Counted from the first letter of the stretch, positions 6,267 through 38,038 are shown. The stretch: 64,000 nt of DNA from Nitrogeniibacter aestuarii (GCF_017309585.1 NZ_CP071321.1:156335-220334); one strand, 5' to 3'. Translations and numbers: made by a program. The notes: generated by a model from the letters alone, not told the origin.

Positions 6267-6278
6267 GCGGTCGCTGGC

Positions 6279-8264
6279 GTGAATGACCACTGGGACTGCC
6301 TGGGGCTCGAACCCACCGACGACCTGGCCACCATCAAGCGTGCCTATGCCAAGGCACTCAAGCTCAACCGGCCCGAGGACGATGCCGGCGCCTACCAGCG
6401 CCTGCGCGAGGCCTACGACTGGGCGCAGCAATTTGCGCGCTGGGCAAAGGCCAATCCCGGCTGGCGGGAGGAGGACGACGACCCGGACGAGGACGTCAGC
6501 GAGACGGATGAGGCTGCCGCGCCATCGGACCTCGACAGCCCGACGAGCAGCCACGAAACGCGCCCACCGCCAGAGCATGAAGTGCAGATCGCGGTATCAC
6601 CACCGGATCATCGTGCCTGGTGGCAGCGTGTCGGTGTCGATCCGGCCGCCGTGCTCATGCCGCACGATCGCGTGCTGCTCACGGGCGAGGGCGCGGCCGA
6701 ACCGCTCATCTTCGTGAGTGTGCTGGGGCAGGCCGCGCCAACCCTTGTGCCACGCTGGCATCGGCATGTGGTGCCTGAGCATGAAGCCACCTGGGCCGAC
6801 CCGATCTACGGTTTCGACGATCTGCACGCCGTCGACGCCAACGACGTGCTCGATGTGCTGGCCGACTGGCGTGACGCCGACGATCCGAATGAAGACCGCA
6901 GCGAAGCCCTCGTGCATCTGCTCCATCAGCTGCCGCTGCGCGAACAGGACGAGGTGCAGGTGCGGTGTGCCGGATTCGTGCTGGAGCAATCTGACCTTCC
7001 GCCCCGGCTGGTCCTCACGCTGGCAAACTGCTTCGACTGGGGGCGTGATTTCCGGCTCGAACAACTCATCGGTGAAGACGACGCGCTGGCGCTCTATGAG
7101 CGCATCGAGCGGGCGCGGGAAGATCTCGCCGAACTCGGGCCGCGAGGCCTCAGGGCCGCGCAGGCGCGCCTGTCTCGCTTGCTCGACTCGGCGCGGGCGC
7201 ATGCCGAAAAACGCTATGCCACCTTCTGGGCGCGCCTGCTCTTGAGCCCTGTGGCGCACTATCGTGATCTGAAGGCACCAGATGCGGCCGTCGTTCTCTC
7301 GGTTGCGGAGCTGCCAGTGCGGCCGCTCTCCAGCGCTGTGCGTGCCGTGTTCTTCGTTTGTCTGCTCGCCGTCGCTGCGCTCATCGGATTCATGCATGGC
7401 GTCGACGGCGTGCTCCATGCGCTTGGCGCCGGAACTGCGCTTGAGCCGCGACTGACCTACCCCTTGCTGCTTCTCGGGGGAGGCGCGCTCGGCTATTACA
7501 TGATGGCCGAATGGCCCCTGCCCGGGCTGGTCGGTATTTTCAGCCGGTTGGGCGGGACGCGGCCGGGCGAATGGCTGGCCCAGCAACGACACCAGCGCGT
7601 CACCTACTGGCTCTGGCTGGCCTATCTGCTGATTCTGACGGTGGGTTTGACCGTGCCTTACGACGCCATGCAGAGGGACGACGTGGCGATGGATCCCGGC
7701 GTCTGGATTGCGATATCGGCGCTCTTCAGTGCCTTGCCATTGCTTGCCCTATGGCCGCGCGGTGAAGCATGGGAGCCTCTGTATCTCCCCATGTGGGGCA
7801 TGTTCAGCGCGGTGCTGGGGGCAAACACCAGTCTGGGCTGGCTGATGTCGCTGCCCATTGCCGCGGCCTGGATCGTGCTGGCGGCGCTGGTCGCGGTGTG
7901 CCATGCCGCGCTGGCCGATCGCGTGGTCAATGGCTTCTTCGGGTTGATCCGTCCCACTGGTTTCCGCTGGGTCCTGTTCTTCATTTTCATCAAGGGCGTC
8001 GTGGTGTTCTATACCGCACTCGCCCTGATCACCCCGCCACTGTGGTTGTGCGTCTATGCGCGCGATGCGGGCTGGCAGAAGGTGTGGATGGCCATGATGA
8101 TCGCCTTCGGCCTGTGGGGGACCGGGCTGCTGGCGCTCGACGGCTTCAGCTTCATGGTGTGGCTCATGGTGACGCTCTTTGCCATGACGCGGCTCGACCG
8201 CCTGATCGCCAATACGCTCGACACGCGAGCCCTGGGCGCCGCCGGAGGCGACGCCCGCGCCTGA
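6279..8264 (+). CDS. J-domain co-chaperone with polytopic membrane C-terminal region (DjlC/DjlB-like)
   Basis: N-terminal J-domain (DLATIKRAYAKALKLNRPEDDAG...YQRLREAYD). Acidic linker. At least 8 hydrophobic helices in the C-terminal half. Directly downstream of hscC. Confidence 0.75.
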   Translation: MNDHWDCLGLEPTDDLATIKRAYAKALKLNRPEDDAGAYQRLREAYDWAQQFARWAKANPGWREEDDDPDEDVSETDEAAAPSDLDSPTSSHETRPPPEHEVQIAVSPPDHRAWWQRVGVDPAAVLMPHDRVLLTGEGAAEPLIFVSVLGQAAPTLVPRWHRHVVPEHEATWADPIYGFDDLHAVDANDVLDVLADWRDADDPNEDRSEALVHLLHQLPLREQDEVQVRCAGFVLEQSDLPPRLVLTLANCFDWGRDFRLEQLIGEDDALALYERIERAREDLAELGPRGLRAAQARLSRLLDSARAHAEKRYATFWARLLLSPVAHYRDLKAPDAAVVLSVAELPVRPLSSAVRAVFFVCLLAVAALIGFMHGVDGVLHALGAGTALEPRLTYPLLLLGGGALGYYMMAEWPLPGLVGIFSRLGGTRPGEWLAQQRHQRVTYWLWLAYLLILTVGLTVPYDAMQRDDVAMDPGVWIAISALFSALPLLALWPRGEAWEPLYLPMWGMFSAVLGANTSLGWLMSLPIAAAWIVLAALVAVCHAALADRVVNGFFGLIRPTGFRWVLFFIFIKGVVVFYTALALITPPLWLCVYARDAGWQKVWMAMMIAFGLWGTGLLALDGFSFMVWLMVTLFAMTRLDRLIANTLDTRALGAAGGDARA

Positions 8265-9389
8265 TCACGCCGCGTTGAGCGCCGTGTTGAGCGTGGCGAC
8301 GGTGCGGTCCACGTCCATCAGCTTGTCGAGGCCGAACAAGCCCACGCGGAAGCTCTTGAAGTCGGCAGGTTCGTCGCACTGTAGCGGCACGCCCGCAGCG
8401 GTCTGAAGGCCTTTGGTCATGAACGTTTTGCCGGTGTGGGTGGCGTCGTCTTCGGTGTAGCTCACCACCACGCCCGGCGCCTGGAAGCCTGGCGCCGCCA
8501 CACTCTTGAAGCCATGCCCTTCGAGCAGGTCGCGCACACGGCGGCCCAGCTCGATCTGGGCGCTCTTGAGCTTCTCGAACCCGATGCCCTCCATCTCCAG
8601 CATGGTATTGCGCATCTTCGTGATGCCATCGGTCGGCATGGTGGCGTGGTAGGCATGGCCGCCGCCGAGGTAGGCATTCATGATCTGCATCCACTTCTTC
8701 AGGTCGGCGGCGAAGCTGGTGCTGGTGGTCGTTTCGATGACCTCGAGTGCCCGCTGGCTCATCATCACCATGGCGCAGCAGGGTGAGCCGCTCCAGCCCT
8801 TTTGCGGCGCGCTGATGAGGATGTCCACACCGGTGGCCTGCATGTCCACCCACACGGTGCCCGAGGCAATGCAGTCGAGCACGAACAGGCCGCCCACCTC
8901 GTGCGTGGCCTCGGCCACGGCCTTGAGGTAGTCGTCGGGCAGGATCATGCCGGCGGCGGTTTCCACATGCGGCGCAAACACCATGGCCGGCTTCTCGGCG
9001 CGAATGGTCGCCACCACCTCATCGATGGGTGCCGGCGCAAAGGGGGCCTGATATTCATCGCTGGTGCGACGCGCCTTGAGTACCGTGTGGCTCGACGGAA
9101 TGTTGCCCATGTCGAAGATCTGCGTCCAGCGGAAGCTGAACCAGCCATTGCGGATCACCAGCGCCTTCTTGCCGGACGCGAACTGGCGCGCCACGGCCTC
9201 CATGCCGTAGGTGCCGCCGCCGGGTACCAGCACGGCCGATTCTGCCTTGTAGGTGTCTTTGAGAATCCGCGACACATCCCGCATGACCGTCTGGAACTTC
9301 TGCGACATGTGGTTGAGTGATCGGTCGGTGTAAACCACCGAGTATTCGAGCAAGCCGTCGGGATCGACGTCTGGTAACAAGCCTGGCAC
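8265..9389 (-). CDS. PLP-dependent aminotransferase, class V fold
   Basis: 374 aa. PLP-lysine region SAPQKGWSGSP. Overall class V aminotransferase architecture. Substrate not assignable from sequence. Confidence 0.7.
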   Translation of the reverse strand: MPGLLPDVDPDGLLEYSVVYTDRSLNHMSQKFQTVMRDVSRILKDTYKAESAVLVPGGGTYGMEAVARQFASGKKALVIRNGWFSFRWTQIFDMGNIPSSHTVLKARRTSDEYQAPFAPAPIDEVVATIRAEKPAMVFAPHVETAAGMILPDDYLKAVAEATHEVGGLFVLDCIASGTVWVDMQATGVDILISAPQKGWSGSPCCAMVMMSQRALEVIETTTSTSFAADLKKWMQIMNAYLGGGHAYHATMPTDGITKMRNTMLEMEGIGFEKLKSAQIELGRRVRDLLEGHGFKSVAAPGFQAPGVVVSYTEDDATHTGKTFMTKGLQTAAGVPLQCDEPADFKSFRVGLFGLDKLMDVDRTVATLNTALNAA

Positions 9390-9602
9390 GGGTGTCTCCC
9401 AATCTCTGGTCTGTGGCCGCTATTGGGTGCGACCTGAAACGTACAGCATGCCACCGTTTTCATGACGGCTCCACCCTGTGCGAAGCAGGGGGATCTGGCG
9501 CCTCTTGCGAGATCATTGAAATGGCATGATTTGCGGCTGTCTGTTTGCCAATGGCATAGTCTCGCGTACCATACAACCCCTCGTGTTTGTCCTGACCTTG
9601 CC

Positions 9603-12560
9603 ATGTTTTCCGAGTTTTCCACCGCCACGCGGCTGTACGATCTGAGCTGGCGCGACAGCGGCCCTGAGTTGCTGGTCGAAGCCTGGTGGGGCCATGAGGC
9701 CCTGTCGCAGGGGTTCGAGCTGTGCATCGACGCGCTGTCGACCGACGCACACCTGGCGCTCAAGGACTTTCTGGGCAAGGCGGTGAGCCTGCGCTGCGCC
9801 CTGCCCGACGGCAGCGCCAGCACCCGCAGCGGTCTCGTGCGCGCCGCCTTCAAGCTGGGCAGCGACGGCGGCTTCACCCGCCACCGGCTGGTGGTGGTGC
9901 CCTGGAGCTGGCTGCTCACGCAAACGCGCAACAACCGCGTCTTCCAGGACAAGAGCGTGGTCCAGATCGTCGAACAGGTATTCGCCACCCACCAGCAGTT
10001 CGCTGCCTGGCAGTGGAGCGATGAAGTGGCAGGCTTTCTGGAGCGCGTGCGTCCCCGCAGCTACTGCGTGCAATACGGCGAAACCGACTACGCCTTCATT
10101 TCCCGCCTGCTGGCCGAAGAGGGCATCGGCTGGTGCATGGAAGAAGACGACAGCGCCCCGGCCGGCCACCGCATGCGCCTGTTCGCCGACAGCGGCGCCT
10201 TCCCCGAAGACGTCCAGTCCCAGGTGGGCGGCATCCGCTTTCACCGCGCCGACTCGCAGGAAGAGAGCGACGCCATCGTCGCGCTCGGCGCCCACCGCAA
10301 GCTCGGCCTGTCGGTGGGCACCACGCTCAGCTACGACTACAAGCACAAGAAGATCGTCGCCACCAGCCTGCCCAGCGTGCAGCGCCCCGGCGGCCCCAAC
10401 GCCCCGGTGCTCGAAGACTTCGACGACGCCGGGCTCTACGCCTACGCCGACCGGGCCGAAGCCGAGCACTACGCCGGGCTCATGCTCGAAGCGCGCGAAG
10501 CACGCTTCAAGACCTTCATCGGCCGCGGCACCGTGCGCAGCTTCCGCCCCGGGCTGGCCTTCAGCCTGAGCGAATCGACGCTCGACGCCCTGGTCGACTC
10601 ACCCGACGACGCCACCGACGAGAACGCCACCCGCTTCGGCCTGCGCTCGGTGCTGCATGTGGGCATCAACAACCTCACCGGCGAAGCCATGGCCAGCATC
10701 GCCAAGCGCCTGTCCGGCGCACTGCACACCGACCCCGGCGCCTGGGAAGAGGCCGAGACACCCCGCGCCGACATCGCCCACGCCCCCGCCCAACTGCCCG
10801 ATCGCATCCTCGAACTGGCCTGCGAGCGCGGCTACGGCAACCAGTTCGACACCCAACGCCTCAGCGTGCCCTGGCGCCCCGTACTGGCCGACGGCACCGG
10901 CGAGCGCCTCAACCCGCGCCCCACCGCCCCCGGCCCCATGACCGCCATCGTCGTCGGCCCGCAGGGCGAAGCCAGCCCCAATGGTGCCGACGAGCTCTAC
11001 TGCGACAAATACGGACGCATCAAGGTGCGCTTCCACTGGCAGCAAGGCCTCGAAGCGGACGACAACCGCAGCTGCTGGCTGCGCGTGGCCAGCCGCCAGG
11101 CCGGCGAAGGCATGGGCTGGCAGTTTCTCCCGCGTATCGGGCAGGAAGTGCTCGTGGGCTTCCTGGGGCAGGACATCGACCGCCCCATCGTCATCGGCGC
11201 GCTCTACAACGGTCGGGGCGAGGGTGGCGTCGCCCCCACCCCGGGCGGCGAGACCGGCAGCGAATCGGACACCAGCGTCTTCACCCAGGCCACCGACCAC
11301 AGCCCCTCCGCCCAGGGCAACCTCAGCGCCGGCAACAGCCCCGCCTGGCACGGCGGCGCCTCCACGGGCCACGGCCACGCCGCTGCCCTGACCGGCTTCA
11401 AGACCAAGGAGTTTGGTGCCAACGGCAGCTACGCCGGCTACAACCAGCTCGTCTTCGACGACACTGACAGCCAGCAGCGCGTGCAGCTCAAGAGCACCGA
11501 ATCGACCAGCGAACTCAACCTCGGCCACCTCATCCACCAGGCCGACAACTACCGCGGCTCCTTCCGTGGCACCGGCGTCGAACTCAGAACCGATGCCTGG
11601 GGCGCCCTGCGCGCCGGCAACGGCTTGCTCATGAGCACCTGGGCCAAAGGCAGTGACCGAGAACCGGCCGGCGACAACAGCGCCGGCATGGCCCTGCTCA
11701 AGCAAGCCACCACCCTAGGCGAAACCCTCTCGGGCGCCGCCAAGACCCACCAGACCGTGCAACTGGCCAGCGCCCTGGGCTCCCAGGCCGCCAACCAGAG
11801 CGCCATCGACCCCGACGCCGCCCCCCTCAAGGCCCTGCACACCGTCGCCAGTGGCATGGTCGCCCGGGACAGCACCGGCGCCGCGAACAGCGACGCGGGC
11901 GCCAAGAACACCGCCGTGGGCGATGGCAAAGTCCCGCATCTCACCGATGCCGCCATCGTCCAGGCCGCCAAAGCCGGCCTGGCCATGGTTGCCGGGCAAC
12001 ACCTGCAATGGACCGTGGGCGAGACCGCCACCCTCATGAGCGGCCAGGACACCAACTTCGCCATCGCCGGCAAGACCCGTATCCACACCGGCCAGGCCAT
12101 CGGCCTGCTCGCCGGCGCCATTCAGCCCGGCGAGCAGAACACCGGCATCAAGCTCATTGCCGCACAAGGCGACATCGATGCCCAGGCCCAGAGCGACGAG
12201 ATGAAGTTCCAGAGCAAGAAGGACCTCAAACTCGTCTCGGCCAGCGCCAACATCGACTTTGCGGCGGCCAAGAAGATCGTCATGTCAGTCGGGGGCGGGG
12301 CGAGCATCACCATCGACGGGGGCATCACCGTGCAGTGCCCGGGGACGATTACGGTGCATGCGAGCAAGAAGAGTTTTAGTGGGCCGACGAGCGAGAGTTA
12401 CGCGTTGCCCGTCATGCCCACTGAGAACAGCGACTGGGTCAAGGTTGACGCGGTATACGACGACGCCTGGAACACCCGTTGGCCCTTGGACGACATGAAG
12501 CTCGATCTTGGCGGACAGCCGCTGGCCACCCACTTCAACCTCCCCAAGACCAAGGAGTAA
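9603..12560 (+). CDS. vgrG: Type VI secretion system spike protein VgrG
   Basis: 985 aa. gp27/gp5-like N-terminal modules (FELCIDALSTDAHLALKDFLGKAV, YCVQYGETDYAFISRLLAEEGIGW). G-rich beta-helical repeat region. ATG at 9603 is inside the longer tracked ORF and has an upstream purine-rich region. Confidence 0.9.
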   Translation: MFSEFSTATRLYDLSWRDSGPELLVEAWWGHEALSQGFELCIDALSTDAHLALKDFLGKAVSLRCALPDGSASTRSGLVRAAFKLGSDGGFTRHRLVVVPWSWLLTQTRNNRVFQDKSVVQIVEQVFATHQQFAAWQWSDEVAGFLERVRPRSYCVQYGETDYAFISRLLAEEGIGWCMEEDDSAPAGHRMRLFADSGAFPEDVQSQVGGIRFHRADSQEESDAIVALGAHRKLGLSVGTTLSYDYKHKKIVATSLPSVQRPGGPNAPVLEDFDDAGLYAYADRAEAEHYAGLMLEAREARFKTFIGRGTVRSFRPGLAFSLSESTLDALVDSPDDATDENATRFGLRSVLHVGINNLTGEAMASIAKRLSGALHTDPGAWEEAETPRADIAHAPAQLPDRILELACERGYGNQFDTQRLSVPWRPVLADGTGERLNPRPTAPGPMTAIVVGPQGEASPNGADELYCDKYGRIKVRFHWQQGLEADDNRSCWLRVASRQAGEGMGWQFLPRIGQEVLVGFLGQDIDRPIVIGALYNGRGEGGVAPTPGGETGSESDTSVFTQATDHSPSAQGNLSAGNSPAWHGGASTGHGHAAALTGFKTKEFGANGSYAGYNQLVFDDTDSQQRVQLKSTESTSELNLGHLIHQADNYRGSFRGTGVELRTDAWGALRAGNGLLMSTWAKGSDREPAGDNSAGMALLKQATTLGETLSGAAKTHQTVQLASALGSQAANQSAIDPDAAPLKALHTVASGMVARDSTGAANSDAGAKNTAVGDGKVPHLTDAAIVQAAKAGLAMVAGQHLQWTVGETATLMSGQDTNFAIAGKTRIHTGQAIGLLAGAIQPGEQNTGIKLIAAQGDIDAQAQSDEMKFQSKKDLKLVSASANIDFAAAKKIVMSVGGGASITIDGGITVQCPGTITVHASKKSFSGPTSESYALPVMPTENSDWVKVDAVYDDAWNTRWPLDDMKLDLGGQPLATHFNLPKTKE

Positions 12561-12566
12561 GGCCAG

Positions 12567-13769
12567 ATGGCTTCGGAAGACGAGGGCGCGAAGAAGTTGC
12601 TCACCCCACAGGGCGGCTCCGTCGCCGTGATGGCAAATCCGAGAAATGTCAGTGAGAAGGAGATTCACGACGACAGATTGCTGATCATTCAACGCCTTGA
12701 CGGTTGCTATGGCAATCTCGTTGAGCACATGGCACCAATGCAGGCGGCCTGGGATGCCAACCCCATGGTCGCGTTGGGCGAAGCGGCCATCGACGGTGCC
12801 AGCGCTGGTGTTGGTGACTGGGCCGACGACTTTGCCGACATGTTCGACAAGAAGACGTGGGTCGCGTTGGGGGACAAGTTGGAGCATGCGGCAGGCGCCG
12901 TCTACGACACCACCCGCGAGTATGCGGCGGATGTCTACCAGCGCATCGACGCGCTCTTCGAGAACGCCGACGATACCCTCGCCAACTGGGCATGGTGGCA
13001 AAGCCAGATCGAATCGGCCGAGCAGGCCGTCGTTGACGATCTCCAGCGAAAGTACGAAGCGATGAGGGAAACGGTTGATGACATCGAGGAGGTCATTGCC
13101 ATCGCCCAGCGGGTGTGGGCCTATCGGGACGACATTCTCAACCTCCCTAAGCTGATTGCAGAAGGTGACGCCAAAGCGGTGCAAGCCTTTGTCGACAACA
13201 CACTACCGAAGATCGACAAGGAACTGGCCGATGGCATTCGCAACGACCCGAATTTCTACGTCGTGCTGGAGATCATTCAGGACAATGACAGCGCGCTGGC
13301 CTATCTGAGTTACGTCAGCCTGGCCATCGAAGCCGTGCCGCCCAACTTCTACGCCTACCACGCCGGCAAGGGCGGCGCCTACCTGATGATTGAAGTGGTG
13401 CTGCTGATCGTCACCGCACTGCTATCGGCCGGCACCGTCGCCGCAGCACGCATCGCCGCACTCGGCGCGCGAATTGCCGCCAGCAGCGCCAAGGTCGCCG
13501 GCGTTGCCCGCAAGGTCGAAGCGGCGCAACGCGCCTTCGCCGCCTTTGTCCGCATGCTCGACGACTTCTCGGCCGCCGCCAACCAGCTCCACGCCCTGGG
13601 CGCCAAGCTCAACGTGGCGCGCCAGCGCGGCCTGCGTGTTGCGGGCAGCACAAAAACCACCATCACCGCCCGCCGCGCCGCCATCAAGCGCGACCGCCGC
13701 TGCCGCATCTGCGGCAGCAGCAAACACAGCACACCGCACGGGCGGCTGGGCACGGTCGAGTACGAATAA
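12567..13769 (+). CDS. VgrG-linked hypothetical protein; probable carrier/N-terminal part of a T6SS effector
   Basis: Starts 6 nt after the vgrG stop with RBS CAAGGAG. Hydrophobic/Ala-rich segment near residues 265-330. In the same reading frame as the downstream AHH gene, separated only by TAA at 13767-13769. Confidence 0.5.
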   Translation: MASEDEGAKKLLTPQGGSVAVMANPRNVSEKEIHDDRLLIIQRLDGCYGNLVEHMAPMQAAWDANPMVALGEAAIDGASAGVGDWADDFADMFDKKTWVALGDKLEHAAGAVYDTTREYAADVYQRIDALFENADDTLANWAWWQSQIESAEQAVVDDLQRKYEAMRETVDDIEEVIAIAQRVWAYRDDILNLPKLIAEGDAKAVQAFVDNTLPKIDKELADGIRNDPNFYVVLEIIQDNDSALAYLSYVSLAIEAVPPNFYAYHAGKGGAYLMIEVVLLIVTALLSAGTVAAARIAALGARIAASSAKVAGVARKVEAAQRAFAAFVRMLDDFSAAANQLHALGAKLNVARQRGLRVAGSTKTTITARRAAIKRDRRCRICGSSKHSTPHGRLGTVEYE

Positions 13770-13784
13770 GGAGAAGAAGGCACA

Positions 13785-14462
13785 ATGCTCGGCAACGTAC
13801 TGAAGGACGCCAAGTACCTCAAACGCATCAAGGACGCCACGGACCTGCTCTCCGACCCCGGCCACCCGCGCCACCACGGAATCAAGATGCAGGCGCATCA
13901 TGTGATTTCGGCGGAGGGGGTGAAGAAGTCTGGTCTTGGGAACGATCTCGTTCGATTTGGCTATGACATCAACCTGTTGGACAATCTGGTCTTCATTCCC
14001 TCGACGCTACAGGGCGCGTGCCACTTGGGCGTGCAGCCGCACCGGGGAGATCACAGGGCGCCGGTCGAGGGGGATGAGTTTGATGATGATCGGAAGCGAC
14101 CGGATGACTACCATAGAACGATCGCCAAGCGAGTCAATGAGTTGAAGCGCCTGCTTACCGACAATTGCCCGGCCGAGGATCCGGACCGGCGGCGGACGAT
14201 TCACCAGAAGATGGATGAGATCAGCAAGAAAATTGCGAAACTCATCCGAATCGTCCCGAGTAAAGCTCCTCTGACGAGAGTTGCGAAGCACTTCGGCCCG
14301 ACATCAAAGATCGGCTGCGGCGGGGTCGATTCGATTCCTCGCCACGAAGACCATCCCTGCCCGGTGGAGCGACATCACCACGGTCAGCAAGGCCCCGGCC
14401 AGAAGGACGAGCAAATCACATACCGGAAAGATAAGCCGTATCAGTTGAAGGTGGGACGATGA
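13785..14462 (+). CDS. AHH-family HNH/EndoVII-fold nuclease toxin domain protein
   Basis: A-H-H motif in MQAHHVISAEGVKKSG. Followed by DINLLDNLVFIPST and a His-rich segment (GACHLGVQPHRGDH), as expected for AHH nucleases of polymorphic toxin systems. Stop overlaps the first immunity-like gene (ATGA). Confidence 0.72.
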   Translation: MLGNVLKDAKYLKRIKDATDLLSDPGHPRHHGIKMQAHHVISAEGVKKSGLGNDLVRFGYDINLLDNLVFIPSTLQGACHLGVQPHRGDHRAPVEGDEFDDDRKRPDDYHRTIAKRVNELKRLLTDNCPAEDPDRRRTIHQKMDEISKKIAKLIRIVPSKAPLTRVAKHFGPTSKIGCGGVDSIPRHEDHPCPVERHHHGQQGPGQKDEQITYRKDKPYQLKVGR

Positions 14463-15085
14463 GCGCAGGCAGGTTTGACAATGACTACTATTTTGTCCAC
14501 GAAGTCCCTCACGATGAGCGTCTTCCATACCTGACACCCGATGAAGACACGTCGCGCAAACCCTATACGTCCAAGCGACTCCCGATGCATACCAAACCGT
14601 TGATTTTCCACAACGGCTCCTTGGATTATCAAAAGGCGAACCGCATCACTCCGTACGATCCGCCCCCGGAAATCCTCTTCAGTGGCTCCGACGTTGTCGT
14701 CAAGGACAAGCTGCGCGACAAACTCCTGCCGCTGGAAATTCCCAACCTCGCCATCCAGCCGGCGATCTACATCGACCACAAAAACAACTGGCACGAGGAC
14801 TACTGGTATCTGACATTCACCGAGTTGTTCGATTGCTGGGATCGAGAGAGGTCTTACTACGACCCCGATCCGGTCGATTTCGACGATGTGAAGCTCTACG
14901 AGGTGTACACCTACTCGCTCGACGAAAAGGTGTTGGAAGAAACGCCGCTCGAATCTCGGCGCCTGTTCAAGATGGGTAGCACCACGGAAGGTCCGGTTGT
15001 CGTCCACGTCTCCATTGCAAGCTGGTTCGGACTTAGCGGCGCAGTGCTTGTGCCCATCGCCGAGTATGGGGTGTCATTTCCCTGA
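14459..15085 (+). CDS. putative immunity protein, tandem paralog 1 of 3 (207 aa)
   Basis: Immediately downstream of, and ATGA-coupled to, the AHH toxin gene. Shares the conserved core LPLEIPNLAIQPAIYIDHKNNWHEDYWYLTFTELFDCWDRER with paralogs 2 and 3. No secretion signal. Confidence 0.6.
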   Translation: MSAGRFDNDYYFVHEVPHDERLPYLTPDEDTSRKPYTSKRLPMHTKPLIFHNGSLDYQKANRITPYDPPPEILFSGSDVVVKDKLRDKLLPLEIPNLAIQPAIYIDHKNNWHEDYWYLTFTELFDCWDRERSYYDPDPVDFDDVKLYEVYTYSLDEKVLEETPLESRRLFKMGSTTEGPVVVHVSIASWFGLSGAVLVPIAEYGVSFP

Positions 15086-15112
15086 AGCGAGAGCGGTGTT
15101 GAAGGTCGGACG

Positions 15113-15736
15113 ATGAGCACAGGAAAATTCGATAGCGACTACTACTTTGTTAGAAAAGCGCAAGACGAGCGTTTGCCGTCGTTGACACCCGACGAAGATA
15201 CATCTCGCAAGCCTTATACGTCGGAGCGGCTTCCGATGCATACCAAGCCATTGATCTTCTTCAACGGTGCGTCGGATTTTCAGAAGAGCAATCACATACG
15301 GCCAAGTGACCCGGCTCCAGACATCCTTTTCAGCGGTTCGGATGTCCTCGTCAAAGACGAAGTACGCGATAAACTTCTGCCGCTGGAAATCCCCAACCTC
15401 GCCATCCAGCCTGCCATCTACATCGACCACAAGAACAACTGGCATGAGGACTACTGGTATCTGACGTTCACCGAGTTGTTCGATTGCTGGGATCGTGAGC
15501 GATCGTCATATCGGCCCAAGCCCATCGATTTCGATGGAGTGAAGATCTACAACGTACGTCAATATTCCCTGAACGATGACCTGCTTGACGAAACCCCACT
15601 CGAGTCCAGACGGCTGTTCAAGATGGGTGGCACGCTGGATGGCTTCGTCGTCGTCCATGTCTCCATTGCGAGCTGGTTCGGACTCAGCGGCGCAGTGCTT
15701 GTGCCCATCGCCGAGTACGGGGTGTCATTTCCTTGA
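15113..15736 (+). CDS. putative immunity protein, tandem paralog 2 of 3 (207 aa)
   Basis: Divergent N-terminal ~60 aa and residues ~135-170. Conserved core and C-terminus. Preceded by a 27-nt spacer whose last 17 nt mimic the 3' end of the AHH gene. Confidence 0.6.
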   Translation: MSTGKFDSDYYFVRKAQDERLPSLTPDEDTSRKPYTSERLPMHTKPLIFFNGASDFQKSNHIRPSDPAPDILFSGSDVLVKDEVRDKLLPLEIPNLAIQPAIYIDHKNNWHEDYWYLTFTELFDCWDRERSSYRPKPIDFDGVKIYNVRQYSLNDDLLDETPLESRRLFKMGGTLDGFVVVHVSIASWFGLSGAVLVPIAEYGVSFP

Positions 15737-15763
15737 AGCGAGAGCGGTGCTGAAGGTCGGACG

Positions 15764-16387
15764 ATGAGCACAGGAAAATTCGACGGCGAATACTATTTCG
15801 TGCTGAAGGACAGGGCAGAGGGAATGCCAGAAATGACGCCGGATGAGGACACCGCAAGGAAGGGCTATCGGTTCACTCGGCTTCCGCTGCACACGAAGCC
15901 TCTGATATTTCACAACGGCTCATTGGAGCATCAACGAGCAAATCGAATTAGGCCCATCGACCCGCCTCCCGAAATTCTATTCGATGGCTCCGACGTCCTC
16001 GTCAAAGACGAAGTACGCGACAAACTCCTGCCGCTTGAAATCCCAAACCTCGCCATCCAGCCTGCCATCTACATCGACCACAAGAACAACTGGCATGAGG
16101 ACTACTGGTATCTGACATTCACCGAGTTGTTCGATTGCTGGGATCGAGAGAGGTCTTACTACGACCCCGATCCGGTCGATTTCGACGATGTGAAGCTCTA
16201 CGAGGTGTACACCTACTCGCTCGACGAAAAGGAGTTGGAAGAAACCCCGCTCGAATCTCGGCGCCTGTTCAAGATGGGTAGCACCACGGAAGGTCCGGTT
16301 GTCGTCCACGTCTCCATCGCGAGCTGGTTCGGGCGCAGCGGCGCAGTGCTGGTGCCCATCGTCGAGTACGGGGTGTCATTTCCCTAA
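15764..16387 (+). CDS. putative immunity protein, tandem paralog 3 of 3 (207 aa)
   Basis: C-terminal 150 aa nearly identical to paralog 1. N-terminus distinct. Same junction sequence as paralog 2. Confidence 0.6.
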   Translation: MSTGKFDGEYYFVLKDRAEGMPEMTPDEDTARKGYRFTRLPLHTKPLIFHNGSLEHQRANRIRPIDPPPEILFDGSDVLVKDEVRDKLLPLEIPNLAIQPAIYIDHKNNWHEDYWYLTFTELFDCWDRERSYYDPDPVDFDDVKLYEVYTYSLDEKELEETPLESRRLFKMGSTTEGPVVVHVSIASWFGRSGAVLVPIVEYGVSFP

Positions 16388-17284
16388 GACCGTCTTGGCC
16401 TCCGATTTGGTGCTTCCCTTGGATACAAATTTTCAAGGCTGGATGGAAATTGCTTGGGCCCGAAGACATCCCTGCTCGAAGCCTGCGACGAGTACGTCAC
16501 CTTGCTCAACCTGCGCAACTGGGAAAAGCTTTGCGAGCGCTACGTGACCGAACAGATCTACGTGCACTCAAAGCTGATGGTTGTGGATGACCGGATCGCG
16601 CTCATTGGCAGTGCCAACATCGATGACCGCAGCTTGCTGGGCGAACGCGATTCGGAACTGGCGGTACTGGTGATTGACGACACCCATGAGAAGGCCGACA
16701 TCGGCCTGGGCCGGCAGACGCCGGTGCGCAAGTTTGCGCGGGAACTGCGCATGGACATCTGGAAGAAGCTGTTCGGAATCACCGGCAATGTGCGCCCGGC
16801 CACGCATCTGCAGGCGGCCATCGAACAGCCGGTCAAGCCAGCCAGTTGGAAGGCGATTCAGAAGCAGGCGCGGGAGAATGCCGAGGCGTATGAGAAGGCG
16901 TTTGAGTTTGTTCCGAGGAATTGGGTAGATGAGGTCGAAGGCAGGGTTCCTGCCAAGATCTTGCCCACTTGGGATTCAAGCTCCGACGTGCCTGAGGGAA
17001 TAGCGGCCAATTGGGGAAAGAAAGGCTATCTGAAATCGCCATTACCGTTCCAGTCGGAATTCTGGGGTAAGCCACGTTACAACCCGACCGCCGTGGCCGG
17101 CCTCAACGACATCAAAGGATTCATTACCGCCCTGCCCGTTCACTGGACCGAAGGCGAGAATATCAAGTTTGTGTTCCCGACATCGCTAGTGGTGCAGAAC
17201 GATCGTACACCGGCCGGTACGCCGCTAAAGACCGCTTGGGACGCAACGCAAGAAGACCAAGCTATAACGGACGAACACGTATGA
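16388..17284 (+). pseudogene. Orphan C-terminal fragment of a phospholipase D-family (Tle5-like) T6SS effector; no start codon
   Basis: Frame opens immediately after the TAA of immunity paralog 3, with no ATG/GTG and no RBS. Contains one PLD HKD motif (HSKLMVVDDRIALIGSANIDDRS = HxKx4Dx6GSxN). The first HKD repeat is missing. ATGA overlap with the downstream lipoprotein gene. Confidence 0.65.
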
Positions 17285-18375
17285 GCTACCGGAATATTGC
17301 GATGGCCCTCGGGCTTTGTCTGCCGCTGGGCGCTTGCGCCGACAAGCCTGCAAACCAGACATGGCCAATCGAATGCGTAGGGCGCATGCAGATTTCGTTG
17401 CCGGGCGAGGCCGATCAGGCAGCCTTACCAAGTTCGGCATTCATTGAACAGTTTGCCGCAACTCAGACAAAGCGTATCCGGCACACGTACTCAGATGGGT
17501 CGTACGCTTCGCGGGTCAATTTATATTTTCGCGCCGGCGTGGAAGTCAGTCAAAAACTCAGCAATCAGGAAGTCGCGAATCTGAAGGGGGCCATCAAGGA
17601 GCGAAATATCCGGGTACAGCAGCATGCGAAAGACCAAGGCGGACAAGTGACATATTTGAATACTGGTCCGCTTGAAGGCTCAGTGCTGGTGCGAAGCGAT
17701 GTGTTTTACATCTCTTCCACATTGATATTTGGCCAACATGCGCTGACATGGAAACTTCGCACGGACGAAAAACGCTTTGACGAAGTGAAGGCTTTGGCTA
17801 ACGGTTTGAGCACGAACCTTCGTCCCCGCCCCCTTTTCGACACCCCCCACGAACCTGGCGTCTGCCTGCCCTATGCCTTCATCCGCGACGACGGCACCAC
17901 CCCGCACAGCATCGCCATGAGCTACCGGCTCAATGATCACCCGGACATCGTCATCAATCTGGAGAGCAGTAGCGCAAGCCCCACACCGAAAAAGGGCGAC
18001 CATGCCCGCCCGGATACCGTCACAGACGAGACGCGCACGAGTGATTTCTGGAACCAGCAGATGACATGGCTGCACACGTTCAAAACCCACTGGAAGCGCC
18101 CATTCTCCATGCGCAGTGTGGACATCGCCGGTCGTAAAGGCACGGCATCGTTCGTGGAAGTGGTGCGCGAAAAAGGCGGTCCCACCGACCACATCTATCT
18201 CGTGGTCGCGCGCGGCAATCCGGACGCCCCCGAGGCTGAGCCGGACATCCGCTTGTTCGTCGAGCAGACGCAGGAGAACGCCACCAAGCGCGGCATTACG
18301 CCGCTGACGCAGGACGAGGTGCAAGCGCTGGCCGAGCAGATCACTGCGAGCGTGTCGATCAGGCCCACTCTCTGA
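17281..18375 (+). CDS. lipoprotein, putative periplasmic immunity protein (Tli-like) for the PLD effector
   Basis: Signal peptide plus lipobox (MALGLCLPLGAC). Translationally coupled to the PLD fragment. Matches the usual tle-tli arrangement. Confidence 0.55.
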   Translation: MSYRNIAMALGLCLPLGACADKPANQTWPIECVGRMQISLPGEADQAALPSSAFIEQFAATQTKRIRHTYSDGSYASRVNLYFRAGVEVSQKLSNQEVANLKGAIKERNIRVQQHAKDQGGQVTYLNTGPLEGSVLVRSDVFYISSTLIFGQHALTWKLRTDEKRFDEVKALANGLSTNLRPRPLFDTPHEPGVCLPYAFIRDDGTTPHSIAMSYRLNDHPDIVINLESSSASPTPKKGDHARPDTVTDETRTSDFWNQQMTWLHTFKTHWKRPFSMRSVDIAGRKGTASFVEVVREKGGPTDHIYLVVARGNPDAPEAEPDIRLFVEQTQENATKRGITPLTQDEVQALAEQITASVSIRPTL

Positions 18376-18519
18376 TCGCTTACCGCAAGTCTTCTGGACC
18401 ATGCAAACCCTCGTGGGTGGCCGTAAGAGCCTGCTCAACGGCATTCGCAGGGGGTTGAAGGCACTGCTGGTTGCAGTAGGCTGGCAAACCGTTGCGCCAA
18501 AAGATCGATGAAGAAGTTA

Positions 18520-18548
18520 ATCAGGGCGCCGCGGCGCCCTGATTTATT
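18520..18548 (-). terminator. Palindromic GC hairpin terminator (bidirectional), downstream of phasin
   Basis: TCAGGGCGCCGCGGCGCCCTGA followed by TTTATTG. Lies between the convergent island end and the phasin stop. Confidence 0.5.
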
Positions 18549-18566
18549 GCGTTCAAGCCCGGAAGT

Positions 18567-19082
18567 TCAAGCCGTCTTCTTAACCGCCACCCGACGGCGC
18601 GTCACCGGCTTCTTCTCCACAGCCGTGGTGCTCTGTTCCATCGTCTTCAGCATGCTCGCGCCGGCTTCGGCGGCCAGTTCGGCGCTTTCTTCGACGGCTT
18701 GTGTCATCAGTTCGGCGGCTTCGACCATCACTTCAGTGCCGGCCGGGCTCCAGCGCTGCAGATCTTCGTAGCTGGCGTGGGCGGTGCGCTGGATGGTGGC
18801 CAGCTGGGCGTTGAGCAGGTCGACCCACTTTTCGTAGCTGTTGGTGAACACCTGCATGGCGCTTTGCAGCACCGAGACGGCGGTGTCCACCTGCACGGGG
18901 CTCGGTTGAGCGCCGGAGAGCATGGTCTGGGCGCGCTCGGCCTGGGTGTCGAAGCTGTCGCGGGCGTGCTGGAGCGAGAGCTGCATCATTTTCTCGATGG
19001 TATCCACGCTCAATTGACCATAGGCGTGCAGGTGGTCGATGGATTCGATCTGGTGTTCTTTGACGAGCGCTTGGGCAATCAT
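18567..19082 (-). CDS. phaP: phasin-family PHA granule-associated protein
   Basis: 171 aa from MIAQALVKEH with RBS GAGG. Ala/Gln/Glu-rich amphipathic helical composition typical of phasins (TIGR01841-like). Confidence 0.8.
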   Translation of the reverse strand: MIAQALVKEHQIESIDHLHAYGQLSVDTIEKMMQLSLQHARDSFDTQAERAQTMLSGAQPSPVQVDTAVSVLQSAMQVFTNSYEKWVDLLNAQLATIQRTAHASYEDLQRWSPAGTEVMVEAAELMTQAVEESAELAAEAGASMLKTMEQSTTAVEKKPVTRRRVAVKKTA

Positions 19083-19197
19083 GGGTTTGACCTCACTGGG
19101 TTGTCCGGGGGGTTGTCGGGAGCATAAGGGTGTTCTGTGACATCCATATGGAGGCATTGCCTACGGGATGAACGCAGGGTATGTAGGATAAGACCGA

Positions 19198-19213
19198 TTG
19201 TGCATTGCACCAA
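19198..19213. promoter_or_regulatory. Palindromic operator-like site upstream of phasin (possible PhaR box)
   Basis: TTGTGCATTGCACCAA (GTGCA-T-TGCAC core) about 115 nt upstream of the phaP start, in the divergent phaP/MFS intergenic region. Confidence 0.25.
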
Positions 19214-19438
19214 ACCCGGTACAATGTTCCTACAAAACTAATTTGCGTTCCAGCGTTGGCCGGTGATCCCGGCACTGCAGTTCGATCGGACAGGAACGCG
19301 CGCGGGTTGTGCTCACAGAGCAGCCCATTTGGTGATCGCGTAAGCGCGCACTGGTCACGTCGATCGTGTCTGCGTGCCTTTGTCCGGTCGAGGTCGCGGT
19401 GGTTGATCCACCTGGTCGAAGCTGACGCCTGGAGAAAC

Positions 19439-20692
19439 ATGCTTCCGGTTGTCGCTCGTATCTTGGCGCTGCTCTCAGGGACGATCCTCTTGCTTTTGGG
19501 GGTCGGCCTGCTCAATACGCTCCTCGTGCTTCGCGGGGCGCTCGAAGGCTTTTCCGACAGCATCCTCGGCCTCATGGGGTCGAGTTATTTCGCTGGCTTC
19601 CTTGTCGGCACCTTGCTGGTGCCGCGTCTTATCAAACGAATCGGCCACATTCGTGGCTTTGCATTCTTCACTGCGGCGGTCGGTGCGGCCGTGCTCGGTC
19701 ATCTCATGGTGATCGACCCCTGGGTGTGGATTGCACTGCGCGTCATTGCTGGGGCCGCTATCGTCGGGCTCTACATCGTGATCGAGAGCTGGCTGTCCAG
19801 TGATGCGGGTGAAGCGCTACGCGGGCGGGTGTTCGCGGTGTACATGGTGTGTAACCTGGGCGCCCTGGCGGCGGCGCAACAGTTGCTGAATGTGGATGCG
19901 CCTTCCGGTTACTTGCTGTTCGTGATTGCGGCGTTTTTCGTGAGTCTGGCGGCCATGCCGGTGTCGGCGACACGTTTGCCGCCGCCCGAACTGCCCAGCG
20001 GCGAACGCATGACACTACTGGCCTGTTATCGTAAGGCGCCGGTCGCGGTCACCACAGGCGTGTTGTCGGGGCTGGCCATGGGCGCTTTCTGGAGTCTGGG
20101 CGCCGTTTATGTCGGCCGCCTCGGGGCGGACGAGACGGTCGCGGCCGATTTCATGACGGCGGCGATTCTGGGCGGCGTCGCCCTTCAATGGCCCATTGGC
20201 CACTTTTCTGACGGTAACGACCGCCGCCGTACGCTGGTGGTGGTGGCCCTGATCACTGCGGCGGCTTCGGCGGGCATGCTGATGGTCGGGGCGGATTACT
20301 GGCTCATGCTCGCAGCCACGTTTGCCTTTGGCGGTGTGGCGTTTTCTCTGTACCCGATTGCGGTCGCTCACCTCGTCGACCACCTGCGAGCCGAAGAAAT
20401 TCTCAGCGGCAGCGCATCTTTACTACTCTTTCATGGAGGCGGCGCCGCGGTCGGTCCGATGATCGCCGGGGCGCTGATGAGCCATCTGGGGCCCATGGCC
20501 CTGCCGATTCACTTCATGGTGATGACCCTGCTGCTGGCGGGCATTGCCTTCTGGCACACGCGCCGACGTGCCGACGTCATCGTCGATGAGCCGGCCGTGT
20601 TCGTGCCCATGGTGCGTACCTCTCAGGGTGCGCTGGACATGATGGCGGCGGACCATGCGACCGCAGCCAGTACAGAAACCCACGCCAATTGA
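19439..20692 (+). CDS. MFS transporter
   Basis: 417 aa, 12 predicted TM helices. RBS GGAGAAAC before the ATG at 19439. ATGA-type overlap with the downstream gene. Confidence 0.8.
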   Translation: MLPVVARILALLSGTILLLLGVGLLNTLLVLRGALEGFSDSILGLMGSSYFAGFLVGTLLVPRLIKRIGHIRGFAFFTAAVGAAVLGHLMVIDPWVWIALRVIAGAAIVGLYIVIESWLSSDAGEALRGRVFAVYMVCNLGALAAAQQLLNVDAPSGYLLFVIAAFFVSLAAMPVSATRLPPPELPSGERMTLLACYRKAPVAVTTGVLSGLAMGAFWSLGAVYVGRLGADETVAADFMTAAILGGVALQWPIGHFSDGNDRRRTLVVVALITAAASAGMLMVGADYWLMLAATFAFGGVAFSLYPIAVAHLVDHLRAEEILSGSASLLLFHGGGAAVGPMIAGALMSHLGPMALPIHFMVMTLLLAGIAFWHTRRRADVIVDEPAVFVPMVRTSQGALDMMAADHATAASTETHAN

Positions 20693-20703
20693 GGATAACA
20701 ACG

Positions 20704-23001
20704 ATGATTCTTGCAACCGATCTGGATGGTACTTTTCTGGCGGGCGACCCCGAAAACCGCGCCCGCCTGTATCAGCTCATCAACAACCACCCCGAGATCA
20801 CGCTGGTCTTCGTGACCGGCCGGGGGCTCGAAGTGGTCATGCCCCTGCTCGATGACCCCACCATCCCTCAACCCGATTTCATCATCTGCGACGTGGGTGC
20901 CACCGTCGTCGAAGGTACGCATCTGCAGTCGGTGGAGCCGATCCAGTCGTCGATCGATGCCATCTGGCCCGGTCAGCACGTCGTTGCCGAACAGGTGGCC
21001 GACATCCCCGGCATTCGTCGCCAGAAGATTCCGCAGCAGCGCCGCTGCTCGTACTTCTGCGATGCAGAGGCGGTCACCGACGAGCTGCGCAAGCGGGTCG
21101 AGGCACTGGGTTGCGAGTTGCTGTATTCGGCCGACAAGTATCTGGACGTGCTGCCCAAAGGGATCAACAAGGGCAACACGCTGGTTCAGCTGGTCGATCT
21201 GCTCGAAGTGCCGCGGGACGAGGTGATTGTCGCCGGCGATACGCTGAACGATCTGTCCATGTTCGAGGTGGGCCTGTTCGGGGTGGCCGTGGGCGAGTCA
21301 GAACAAGGCCTGCTCGACGCCACCCGCGACCGCTCCAAGATCCTTCACGCCAAGCACACTGGCTGTGGCGGCATTCTCGAAGCCTTGTCGCACTTCGGCT
21401 TCCTGGGCCAGGGGGCGGTGGCCGCCGAGCTGGCCGAGCTGTCCAAGCCAGGGCGCTCAGAGCTGGTGATGGTGTATCACCGCCTGCCCTACGAAGAAAC
21501 CTGGGAGAACGGCGAGCTGGTGCGTCGTCGGCCCACGTCCCCCAACGGCATCATGCCGACGCTGTTCTCGTTCTTCAAAGGCGGCAAGCGCGGCGCCTGG
21601 GTGGCCTGGTCCATCCACGACCCCGAGAGCGGCCGCCCTTTTGAAACCCACACCGTGGTGGATCGCAAGGAATTCCCGGGCCTGGTGGCGGCGCGCGTAG
21701 CGCTCACCAAGAACGACGTGGACGTCTTCTACAAGCGTTTTTCCAAGGAAGCCTTCTGGCCGACGCTGCATACCTTCTGGGAGCGCGCGCACTTCCGCGA
21801 GGAAGACTGGGAGGTGTTTCTCAAGGTGAACCGCATGTTCGCCGAGCGCACTGCGGCCGAGGCCGCCGAGGGCGCGCTGGTGTGGCTGCATGACTACAAC
21901 CTGTGGATGGTGCCGGCCTTCCTGCGCGAGTTCCGCCCCGATCTGCGTATCGCCTTCTTCCACCACACCTACTTCCCGTCTGCCGATGTGTTCAACGTGC
22001 TGCCGTGGCGCCGCGAGATCATCGGCAGCCTGATGCAGTGCGACTACATCGGCTTCCATATCCCGCGTCAGGTGGAGAACTTCATCGATGCCGCGCAGGG
22101 GGTGCTGCCGGTCAAGGTGGTCGAGCGCAAGGCCAGTGCGCCACGCTTCCGCACCTATGGCTGCGCGGTGGGCGTGGACACCTACGCCACCACAATCGAG
22201 GTGCACAATCGCCGCATCGGGCTGGGCGCCCACCCGGTCGGGCTCGACGTGGGCCGCATCGAGAAGATTCTGGCCGAGCAGTCGACCCAGAAGCGTATGG
22301 AAGCCTTGCGGGCCGAGCTGGCGGGCAAGCGCATGGTGCTGTCGGTGGAGCGCCTGGACTACACCAAGGGCACGCTGCAGAAGATCGAGGCCTTTGAGCG
22401 CCTGCTTGAAAAGCATCCCGAGTTCCACGGCAAGGTCACCCTGGTGACTGTGTGTGTGCCGGCGGCCAAGGAAATGACCATCTACCAGCAGTTGCAGGAG
22501 CAGATCGAGCGCGCCGTGGGGCGGGTCAACGGCCGTTTCTCCACCGTGGGCTGGACGCCGCTGCAGTTCTTCTTCCGTCCGCTGCCCTTCGAAGAGGTGG
22601 TGAGCTACTACGCCATGGCCGACGTCATGTGGATCACCCCATTGCGCGATGGCCTCAACCTGGTGGCCAAGGAATACGTCGCCACGCAGGGCCTCACCAA
22701 CGGCAAGGGCACCCTGGTGCTGTCCGAGTTTGCCGGCGTGGCGGCCGAGCTGCATGGCACCTTGCTCACCAATCCGCACGACCCGGCCGATCTGGAAGAC
22801 AAGATCTACCTGGGGCTGACCATGAGTGGTTCGAATGGCGACCCGGCCGGGCGCATCCGTCAGCAGTTCGGCATCGTCCAGCACAACGATGTGCACGCCT
22901 GGGGGCAGGAGTTCATGGAGGCGGTCAAGGCGGTGGATACCACCCCGCTGGAAGACCGTGAAGAGCCTGCGATGGCATCCGAACTCAGCGGTGTAAGCTG
23001 A
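20704..23001 (+). CDS. Bifunctional HAD-IIB sugar-phosphate phosphatase / GT20 glycosyltransferase (GgpPS-like glucosylglycerol-phosphate or trehalose-6-P phosphatase-synthase fusion)
   Basis: N-terminal HAD motif I (ATDLDGTFL) and motif III (VIVAGDTLNDLSM). C-terminal GT20/OtsA-like motifs (VVYHRLPYEE, LVWLHDYNLWMVPAFLRE, FFHHTYFPS, VSYYAMADVMWITPLRDGLNLVAKEY). RBS GAGGATAACAACGATG. Confidence 0.75.
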   Translation: MILATDLDGTFLAGDPENRARLYQLINNHPEITLVFVTGRGLEVVMPLLDDPTIPQPDFIICDVGATVVEGTHLQSVEPIQSSIDAIWPGQHVVAEQVADIPGIRRQKIPQQRRCSYFCDAEAVTDELRKRVEALGCELLYSADKYLDVLPKGINKGNTLVQLVDLLEVPRDEVIVAGDTLNDLSMFEVGLFGVAVGESEQGLLDATRDRSKILHAKHTGCGGILEALSHFGFLGQGAVAAELAELSKPGRSELVMVYHRLPYEETWENGELVRRRPTSPNGIMPTLFSFFKGGKRGAWVAWSIHDPESGRPFETHTVVDRKEFPGLVAARVALTKNDVDVFYKRFSKEAFWPTLHTFWERAHFREEDWEVFLKVNRMFAERTAAEAAEGALVWLHDYNLWMVPAFLREFRPDLRIAFFHHTYFPSADVFNVLPWRREIIGSLMQCDYIGFHIPRQVENFIDAAQGVLPVKVVERKASAPRFRTYGCAVGVDTYATTIEVHNRRIGLGAHPVGLDVGRIEKILAEQSTQKRMEALRAELAGKRMVLSVERLDYTKGTLQKIEAFERLLEKHPEFHGKVTLVTVCVPAAKEMTIYQQLQEQIERAVGRVNGRFSTVGWTPLQFFFRPLPFEEVVSYYAMADVMWITPLRDGLNLVAKEYVATQGLTNGKGTLVLSEFAGVAAELHGTLLTNPHDPADLEDKIYLGLTMSGSNGDPAGRIRQQFGIVQHNDVHAWGQEFMEAVKAVDTTPLEDREEPAMASELSGVS

Positions 23002-23230: not shown

Positions 23231-23240
23231 TGCCGGCCCC

Positions 23241-36769: not shown

Positions 36770-38038
<1,269 letters not shown>

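Follow-up and report, generated by a model that had tools for sequence, protein, structure and literature searches.

A stand-alone vgrG gene of Nitrogeniibacter aestuarii and the cargo genes behind it were analysed in a stretch of 64,000 nucleotides (GCF_017309585.1, NZ_CP071321.1:156335-220334), hereafter referred to as the window, with positions counted from its first letter. The locus, at 9603-18375 on the plus strand, consists of eight co-directional open reading frames (ORFs) recovered by ORF calling, namely the gene for a type VI secretion system (T6SS) spike protein of the VgrG family, a gene for a 400-aa protein (hereafter p400), a nuclease gene of the Tox-AHH family, three tandem Imm11-like paralogues, a fragment of a phospholipase D (PLD) gene and a lipoprotein gene. 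A reading of the DNA made from the sequence alone (the original prediction) had proposed a full-length vgrG followed by seven ORFs chained by short gaps or ATGA overlaps, and all eight are present as described, with intergenic gaps from vgrG to the lipoprotein gene of 6, 15, -4 (ATGA overlap), 27, 27, 66 and -4 (ATGA overlap) nt. The absence of T6SS core genes, which it had also noted, was confirmed in that none of the core families occurs among the 45 genes called in the window, a set with a few gaps, one of which holds a 454-aa ORF at 34584-35948. The GC content drops from ~0.70 in vgrG to 0.54-0.58 over 14-18 kb, where the immunity, PLD and tli genes are located, the flanks being at ~0.65. 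A promoter scan gave a promoter-like site at 9545-9572, 5' of vgrG, and nothing above chance was obtained by promoter and terminator scans within the island. Genomic context was drawn from homologous loci in other genomes, as the proteins of the window had no exact counterparts in the assembly index. The arrangement is read here, with good confidence, as a stand-alone chromosomal vgrG cargo locus in which the cargo has been replaced by recombination.

The first gene (9603-12560) encodes a protein of 985 aa identical to the NCBI-annotated VgrG of N. aestuarii, with matches to the Pfam families Phage_GPD (E 1e-71), Phage_base_V (1e-16), T6SS_Vgr (3e-35) and DUF2345 (1e-39) and to the NCBIfam model TIGR03361 (310 bits, cut-off 186). 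The product is, as judged from its gp27-like, gp5-like OB and T6SS_Vgr regions, the T6SS spike protein VgrG (TssI). The resident core of the gene, a gp27/gp5-like spike with DUF2345 that comprises codons 1 to ~933 (9603-12402), is syntenic with and 79% DNA-identical to the vgrG of N. mangrovi. At 11990-12350 the identity to N. mangrovi is 0.78-0.93 as against 0.65-0.88 to Denitromonas, while after ~12400 it is 0.32-0.55 to N. mangrovi and a relative on a JGI metagenomic contig and 0.67-0.82 to Denitromonas. By this shift in identity the left recombination junction can be located at vgrG codon ~927-936, with the crossover placed at 12380-12410, and the ~50 codons that follow (12403-12560) would constitute an imported, cargo-specific tail. 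The last 45-50 residues carry the motif S-x-W-V-K-x-x-A-x-Y-x-D-A-W-x-T-x-W-P-L, which is common to the VgrGs preceding p400-AHH-Imm genes in Denitromonas and Jeongeupia, and the Jeongeupia VgrG is only 35% identical to the window VgrG outside this tail; VgrGs linked to PLD genes end in a different tail of ~145 aa. Since the tail is shared with AHH-type VgrGs, even where the body diverges as in Jeongeupia, and differs from that of PLD-linked VgrGs, the tail type tracks the cargo and not the core. An assignment of the core itself as PLD-type was considered and rejected, as the closest cores (75-78%) have other cargo.

The same chromosomal site carries different cargo between conserved flanks in the relatives. 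In the sister species N. mangrovi, an Aminotran_5 gene (minus strand) is followed by vgrG-tle3-tli3 and then by phasin-like, MFS, trehalose-phosphate synthase, FeoC and FeoB genes, and on the JGI contig Aminotran_5 is followed by vgrG, a PGAP1-like lipase gene and tli4. The window is collinear with N. mangrovi at 79-80% over 8298-12402 and 18634-25276, and nothing between these segments matches in blastn comparisons. Because the DNA homology to both relatives stops at about vgrG codon 930 (12402) and resumes at 18634, the segment 12403-18633 is regarded in its entirety as a swappable, variable cargo slot.

The toxin gene nearest to vgrG in this slot (13785-14462) codes for a stand-alone protein of 225 aa with a match to Pfam AHH (PF14412; E 3e-11, 43.7 bits, cut-off 22.3), a nuclease family of the His-Me finger/HNH-EndoVII type. 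Residues A37-H38-H39, N63/N67, H80, H86, H90 and Y109-H110 are invariant in seven homologues, and the motif described for Tox-AHH consists of [AG]HH with conserved N, H, H and Y (Zhang et al. 2012, PMC3482391). The protein is, by profile and conserved residues, a Tox-AHH nuclease, as had been predicted. The block formed by the VgrG tail, p400, AHH and Imm genes is kept in Denitromonas iodatirespirans, Jeongeupia and Chromobacterium violaceum; in D. iodatirespirans it is 84-90% identical at the amino acid level and 75-98% at the DNA level throughout and includes a single Imm gene. In Denitromonas the AHH module is flanked by a vgrG core and a tli3 gene that are 80% and 74% DNA-identical, respectively, to those of N. 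mangrovi, and tle3 is absent. Since the module there replaces tle3 beside tli3, it represents a second, independent displacement by the AHH module. The orphan tli3 of the Denitromonas locus L001 (JAEKFT010000059, 1-4300) is 72% identical in amino acids to N. mangrovi Tli3 and has a DUF6396 gene behind it; a segment at 3111-3164 that might be left over from the Tle3 C-terminus was treated as tentative (18 residues, E 0.05, no DNA-level match). A different order is seen in the Pseudoduganella loci L086 and L087, in which vgrG is preceded by a 228-aa gene, AHH and Imm and followed by p400.

The gene between vgrG and the nuclease gene (12567-13769) encodes p400, an all-helical protein of 400 aa for which searches of Pfam and NCBIfam, including DUF4123, DUF1795, DUF2169 and PAAR, gave no match beyond noise at E up to 0.1. 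Its close homologues, of ~400-413 aa, number 114, the family falls into 151 clusters at 50% identity, mostly from Betaproteobacteria, and a hydrophobic stretch at residues ~268-300 and a C-terminal C-x-x-C-G-S-x-x-H are conserved. In four homologues (P0233, P0372, P0392, P0398) p400 is fused behind Tox-PAAR-like domains, and in another (P0400) p400 and AHH form one chain, the gene boundary of the window falling between G-T-V-E-Y-E and M-L-G-N. The minimal AHH loci of Denitromonas, Jeongeupia and Chromobacterium have one immunity gene and no second. Because of the PAAR-like::p400 and p400::AHH fusions and the single immunity gene of the minimal loci, we conclude from this context that the AHH effector is split, with p400 as its delivery half that is loaded via the VgrG tail or PAAR, and regard p400 as a candidate secreted carrier or co-effector; the designation carrier-like in the original prediction is supported by the same fusions. 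Occurrence both alone and in fusions is a criterion for T6SS co-effector or adaptor domains (survey PMC10673891). With MIX (PMC8728615) and RIX (PMC10435454), p400 shares the occurrence both alone, here between vgrG and the toxin, and fused; it differs in having neither a Pfam sequence match nor a structural relative.

The conserved hydrophobic helical segment could also be taken to mean that p400 is itself a membrane-active toxin acting through this helix and not a carrier, and two homologues have a precomputed SseC-like Pfam match. Such a role is, however, very unlikely, as the minimal loci have a single immunity gene of the nuclease-associated Imm11 type and the fusions put p400 between a PAAR-like loading domain and the position of the toxin. 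Returning to p400 as a carrier, a broader suggestion, which is tentative and somewhat short of an even chance, is that the family constitutes an undescribed T6SS co-effector or secreted carrier domain coupling small stand-alone AHH nucleases to the spike through the cognate 45-residue VgrG tail, or through a PAAR-like domain when fused. The conserved hydrophobic helix might then help the nuclease to cross the inner membrane of the target, and tail, p400, AHH and Imm would form a self-contained plug-in overwriting the cargo of any resident vgrG, as seen twice (tle5 in N. aestuarii and tle3 in Denitromonas). Conserved Cys/His motifs were also observed in both proteins, C-x-x-C-G-S-x-x-H at p400 residues ~375-400 and G-C...C...H at residues 178-198 in the C-terminal half of the AHH protein, and these could be metal sites at a p400-AHH interface.

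The nuclease gene is followed by three tandem paralogues (14459-16387) of 208, 207 and 207 aa (14459-15085, 15113-15736 and 15764-16387), which lie on a 651-bp direct repeat. The three copies score 13.7-19.1 bits (E 1e-3 to 4e-2) against Imm11 (PF07791), below its cut-off of 22.1, and all eight members of the family, i.e. these three and those from five other loci, match Imm11 weakly, the best E being 1e-4 and likewise below the cut-off. Copy 1 overlaps the AHH gene by ATGA, and the same AHH-Imm order is found in five other loci; Imm11 is listed as a partner of Tox-AHH and associated with AHH/HNH/SHH toxins (PMC3482391). The copies are mosaic. Over the central 120 nt all are 87-98% identical. 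In alignment columns 361-540, copies 1 and 3 agree with each other and with the single Denitromonas gene at 97-100%, as against 57-80% for copy 2, and the 5' third of copy 3 is Denitromonas-like, a pattern that fits duplication with gene conversion. Copy 3 ends at 16387, and the 87 nt 3' of it (16388-16474), which resemble neither the Imm repeats nor PLD genes and hold the TTG at 16454 that serves as the annotated start of the PLD ORF, were taken as the right junction of the AHH module on the basis of repeat-end alignment and translation. A fourth, partial Imm repeat at this place was considered and rejected, since the 87 nt are unique.

Beyond this junction lies the PLD ORF (16454-17284; 276 codons), which has one H.K....D motif and no in-frame ATG, only TTG; its frame is that of the third Imm copy and is open, without ATG, back to the stop codon of that gene. 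It matches Pfam PLDc (E 5e-10) and human PLD1/2 (E 4e-22) and aligns to residues 829-1081 of Pseudomonas aeruginosa PldA (Tle5a; PDB 7v53, E 9e-49), i.e. to the C-terminal third with the second HKD motif (HKD2). In tblastn, homology begins at 16475 and the ORF spans the equivalent of residues 557-791 in a homologue of 816 aa, with 61% identity. The closest full-length homologues are proteins of 816-840 aa with two HKD motifs, in which ~550 residues lie 5' of the point where the window copy starts. These residues, including the first motif (HKD1), are missing from the ORF, so that the PLD assignment and the description as a start-less, single-HKD fragment both stand, and two HxKxxxxD motifs in one chain are not found. 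The active site of PldA needs His167 and His855, one from each HKD motif, and HK mutants are dead (PMC9550806). Because both histidines are required in PldA, the fragment alone should be inactive, and the ORF is predicted to be a catalytically dead remnant of the Tle5/PldA family.

A working enzyme of 276 aa, for example a homodimer of the Nuc/BfiI type serving as a second effector of the locus, has been weighed in this connection. The ORF is intact and has the HxKxxxxD...GSxN motif in full, it figures as a protein in the NCBI annotation, and short homologues are frequent; yet the ORF represents the HKD2 lobe of a bilobed, eukaryote-like PLD with the two-histidine active site cited above, the short homologues are cut at differing points, some within the motif, and the ORF has no ATG, a 66-nt gap before it and no cognate VgrG tail. 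An active short enzyme is therefore considered extremely improbable. The best 120 PLD homologues are all of at most 483 aa, being either cut by contig ends or orphans with variable starts, and one of the short homologues (P0055) begins inside the HKD motif. A genuine family of short single-HKD proteins was rejected, as full-length genes of 800-1190 aa are present in nearly every locus for which sufficient sequence was available. Just past HKD2, codon 57 (16622-16624) specifies Asp in place of the Asn found in >90% of homologues (N57D; IDD vs IND), the only deviation at a highly conserved PLD position, and because of it a degenerate-pattern genome scan missed the genome of N. aestuarii itself.

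The last gene of the locus (17281-18375) overlaps the PLD ORF by ATGA and codes for a lipoprotein with a lipobox-like LGAC. It matches Pfam Tli4_C (E 4e-14, 53.5 bits, cut-off 25), and its best solved relative is PA3488/Tli5a (5xmg; 7wdk is the complex with PldA) at E 7e-11. The lipoprotein is, by sequence and position, an immunity homologue of the Tli5a (PA3488) type. The lipoprotein immunity of the original prediction is thereby given a putative Tli5a identity, although the Pfam domain is named Tli4_C. A scan of species-representative genomes returned 79 related PLD loci, and in nearly all of these homologues of the lipoprotein lie directly 3' of the PLD gene. The order in nearly all loci of sufficient length is vgrG, a two-HKD PLD gene (816-840 aa in the closest clade, up to ~1190 aa elsewhere) and a tli5 homologue, ~60 of the loci being vgrG-PLD-tli without an AHH module. 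The PLD ORF of the window is likewise directly before tli, but five genes separate it from vgrG, so that it is not directly behind a cognate vgrG. One of the PLD loci, L010 (an Aquabacterium metagenome-assembled genome, 1-19100), is a tandem of alternating vgrG and PLD genes, the former numbering at least four and the latter, which are of two types, at least three.

A second PLD remnant was detected right after the tli5 stop codon by tblastn against the whole window. The 26 codons at 18386-18463 (QVFWTMQTLVGGRKSLLNGIRRGLKA) match residues 505-530 of the PLD of locus L008 (73%, E 7e-7) and appear to open another orphan PLD-C-terminus module, which is truncated where the slot ends on the right. 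The two-layer architecture of the original prediction is retained in its AHH and PLD layers, and this stub adds a third. Comparable orphan pairs of a PLD C-terminus and tli were found behind intact PLD-tli pairs in seven loci (L005, L007, L019, L028, L034, L072, L081), and Tle5-type phospholipases thus commonly leave orphan C-terminus/immunity modules, for which no description was found in the literature searched.

Such orphans invite the explanation that the PLD C-terminus with tli5 is a silent cassette, a recombination reservoir like the orphans of Rhs/CdiA, that could recombine into a full-length tle5 at another place in the genome and so alter toxin/immunity specificity. The orphan pairs of the seven loci are in keeping with it, those of L005 and L019 having diverged from the main copy (PLD C-terminus 81-84%, Tli 71-78% identical), many orphans start near the conserved motifs HPEG/QVYWTMQ or YVTLLNLRNW, and the window fragment is undecayed. 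A reservoir function is nevertheless unlikely, as the PLD family has no sharp conserved-to-variable boundary such as VENN or PxxxxDPxGL and the window contains no full-length tle5.

Replacement of the cargo by displacement, as put forward in the original prediction, is well supported by the left junction within vgrG and by the gene order in relatives. The site holds different cargo between conserved flanks in these, the breakpoint falls in vgrG, the AHH module is proximal, and tli5 is distal without an intact effector. In the proposed course of events, a vgrG core orthologous to that of N. mangrovi would have acquired, at codon ~930, an imported block made up of tail, p400, AHH and Imm11-like gene, the imported immunity gene having since become three mosaic tandem copies. 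The tail region would have been overwritten by the import, as would the initial two-thirds of a PLD gene of the Tle5/PldA type, and what is left on the 3' side would be the last ~270 PLD codons with HKD2 only, the Tli5a-like gene and the stub, 26 codons long, of another PLD-C-terminus module. The identities of the genes, the truncation, the synteny, the positions of the junctions, the joint occurrence of the modules and the domain fusions are matters of observation; from them we infer how the locus, if expressed, would operate. By protein-protein contact, p400 would dock on the VgrG tail and carry the AHH nuclease on the T6SS spike for secretion, and the toxicity of the nuclease would lie in the degradation of DNA in the cytoplasm of the target cell. 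The Imm11-like proteins would protect the producer and the PLD fragment would be an inactive relic, while the orphan Tli5 may still confer immunity in the periplasm against the Tle5 phospholipases of neighbours.

Several observations weigh against this reading. An intact vgrG-tle5-tli5 was not found at this chromosomal site in any relative, the PLD loci retrieved lying in other genomic contexts, and an intact tle5 ancestor at the N. aestuarii site is therefore supposed and not observed. The VgrG core is not PLD-specific, its closest counterparts carrying other cargo. The PLD fragment is nearly undecayed, with 30 of 30 invariant and 12 of 13 near-invariant positions kept, and its frame is open with a possible TTG start; therefore, either the event was recent or the fragment is under some constraint. 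No structural relative of p400 was detectable in a fold search, so that its role is read from context, and the core apparatus needed to fire the spike was not seen in a search covering the 64-kb window.

The synteny comparison suggested earlier has two sides in this respect. The ~60 loci with vgrG-PLD-tli and no AHH module agree with its expectation, but the nearest relatives at this very site have tle3-tli3 or a tle4-like lipase with tli4. The latter is among the grounds for an alternative in which the two- or three-layer array was built elsewhere and imported whole (12403-18633), replacing, for example, tle3-tli3, so that tle5 was never intact at the site. The GC content is lowered over the whole block, homology to N. 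mangrovi resumes only past the PLD stub, and complex arrays have been noted to move as units (Kirchberger et al., PMC5361080). Against a one-piece import, neither the 79 PLD loci nor the AHH loci included a donor with this composite array, and the Denitromonas AHH module stands alone beside a locally resident tli3, which indicates that the module moves by itself. Import of the finished array is accordingly held to be somewhat unlikely. As regards displacement at the site itself, an AHH cassette together with an intact PLD gene was seen in no relative, the AHH loci of Denitromonas, Jeongeupia and Chromobacterium being without PLD, and the same gene order with an intact full-length PLD, which would have spoken against the model, was not encountered.

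Sequential effector displacement with arrays of orphan immunity genes has been described for the T6SS clusters of Vibrio cholerae (Kirchberger et al. 2017, PMC5361080). The N. aestuarii locus resembles these in that a horizontally acquired effector-immunity module is inserted behind delivery genes and displaces the older effector, whose immunity gene persists at the distal end; in both, the left crossover falls within conserved sequence upstream, and relatives have different cargo at the locus. It differs from them in having a stand-alone betaproteobacterial vgrG for delivery and an incoming module equipped with a VgrG tail and carrier protein of its own; moreover, an effector C-terminal ORF of 276 codons is left behind and not just an immunity gene, and the layers would target DNA and membrane, respectively. 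Displacement in Rhs/CdiA systems (Jackson et al. 2009; Zhang et al. 2012, PMC3482391) likewise yields an orphan toxin C-terminus with immunity gene 3' of the active gene and tandem immunity paralogues; however, the Tle5 PLDs belong to the cargo effectors and have no demarcating motif, and the displacing unit here is a heterologous multi-gene module rather than a fresh C-terminal tip for one and the same protein. PldA (Tle5a)-Tli5a (PA3488) of P. aeruginosa, which is associated with VgrG4b (7v53, 7wdk; PMC9550806), is homologous in both components and related loci have the order vgrG-PLD-tli, whereas the window copy is without HKD1 and ~550 N-terminal residues and its closest full-length relatives are of ~820 aa and not 1099. 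VgrG-linked Tox-AHH DNases with downstream immunity in an orphan vgrG module are represented by V2a of Agrobacterium tumefaciens (PMC10902643) and Txe2 of P. plecoglossicida. The N. aestuarii system is set apart from V2a by its architecture, as the AHH domain of V2a is the C-terminus of a longer polypeptide, while here the toxin (225 aa) and the carrier (400 aa) are separate genes.

The locus thus provides an unusually full, coordinate-level record of T6SS cargo turnover, with a resident core, an imported tail and module, a truncated effector, a retained immunity gene and a stub, and indicates that VgrG C-terminal tails travel with their cargo. It is a clean, though not unprecedented, case of turnover of a bacterial weapon, which leaves the accepted picture of effector displacement unchanged and extends it to a new lineage and to new module types. 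New here are the second, 26-codon PLD remnant and the fusions of p400 to PAAR-like domains and, once, to AHH; p400, as an uncharacterised candidate carrier family, merits experimental follow-up above all.

The rest of the window is of a housekeeping nature and includes AcrB/OEP efflux, Hsp70-like, aminotransferase, phasin, MFS, trehalose-phosphate synthase and FeoB genes, along with RtcR/RtcB, OmpA, cytochromes and others. A tRNA-like gene at 30806-30879 (plus strand) is located between rtcR (28823-30469, minus strand) and SPFH/rtcB genes. It scores 47 bits against the Rfam tRNA model and is assigned no anticodon by ARAGORN, a UUCG tetraloop caps its anticodon arm and the gene includes the 3' CCA; possibly, it represents a tRNA mimic tied to the Rtc RNA-repair system. 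At 4566-8264 (plus strand), an Hsp70-like gene is followed by a gene for a 661-aa protein with a J-domain-like N-terminus, many predicted membrane helices and no Pfam match, and at 36770-38038 a protein with acidic repeats and a DnaJ domain is encoded.

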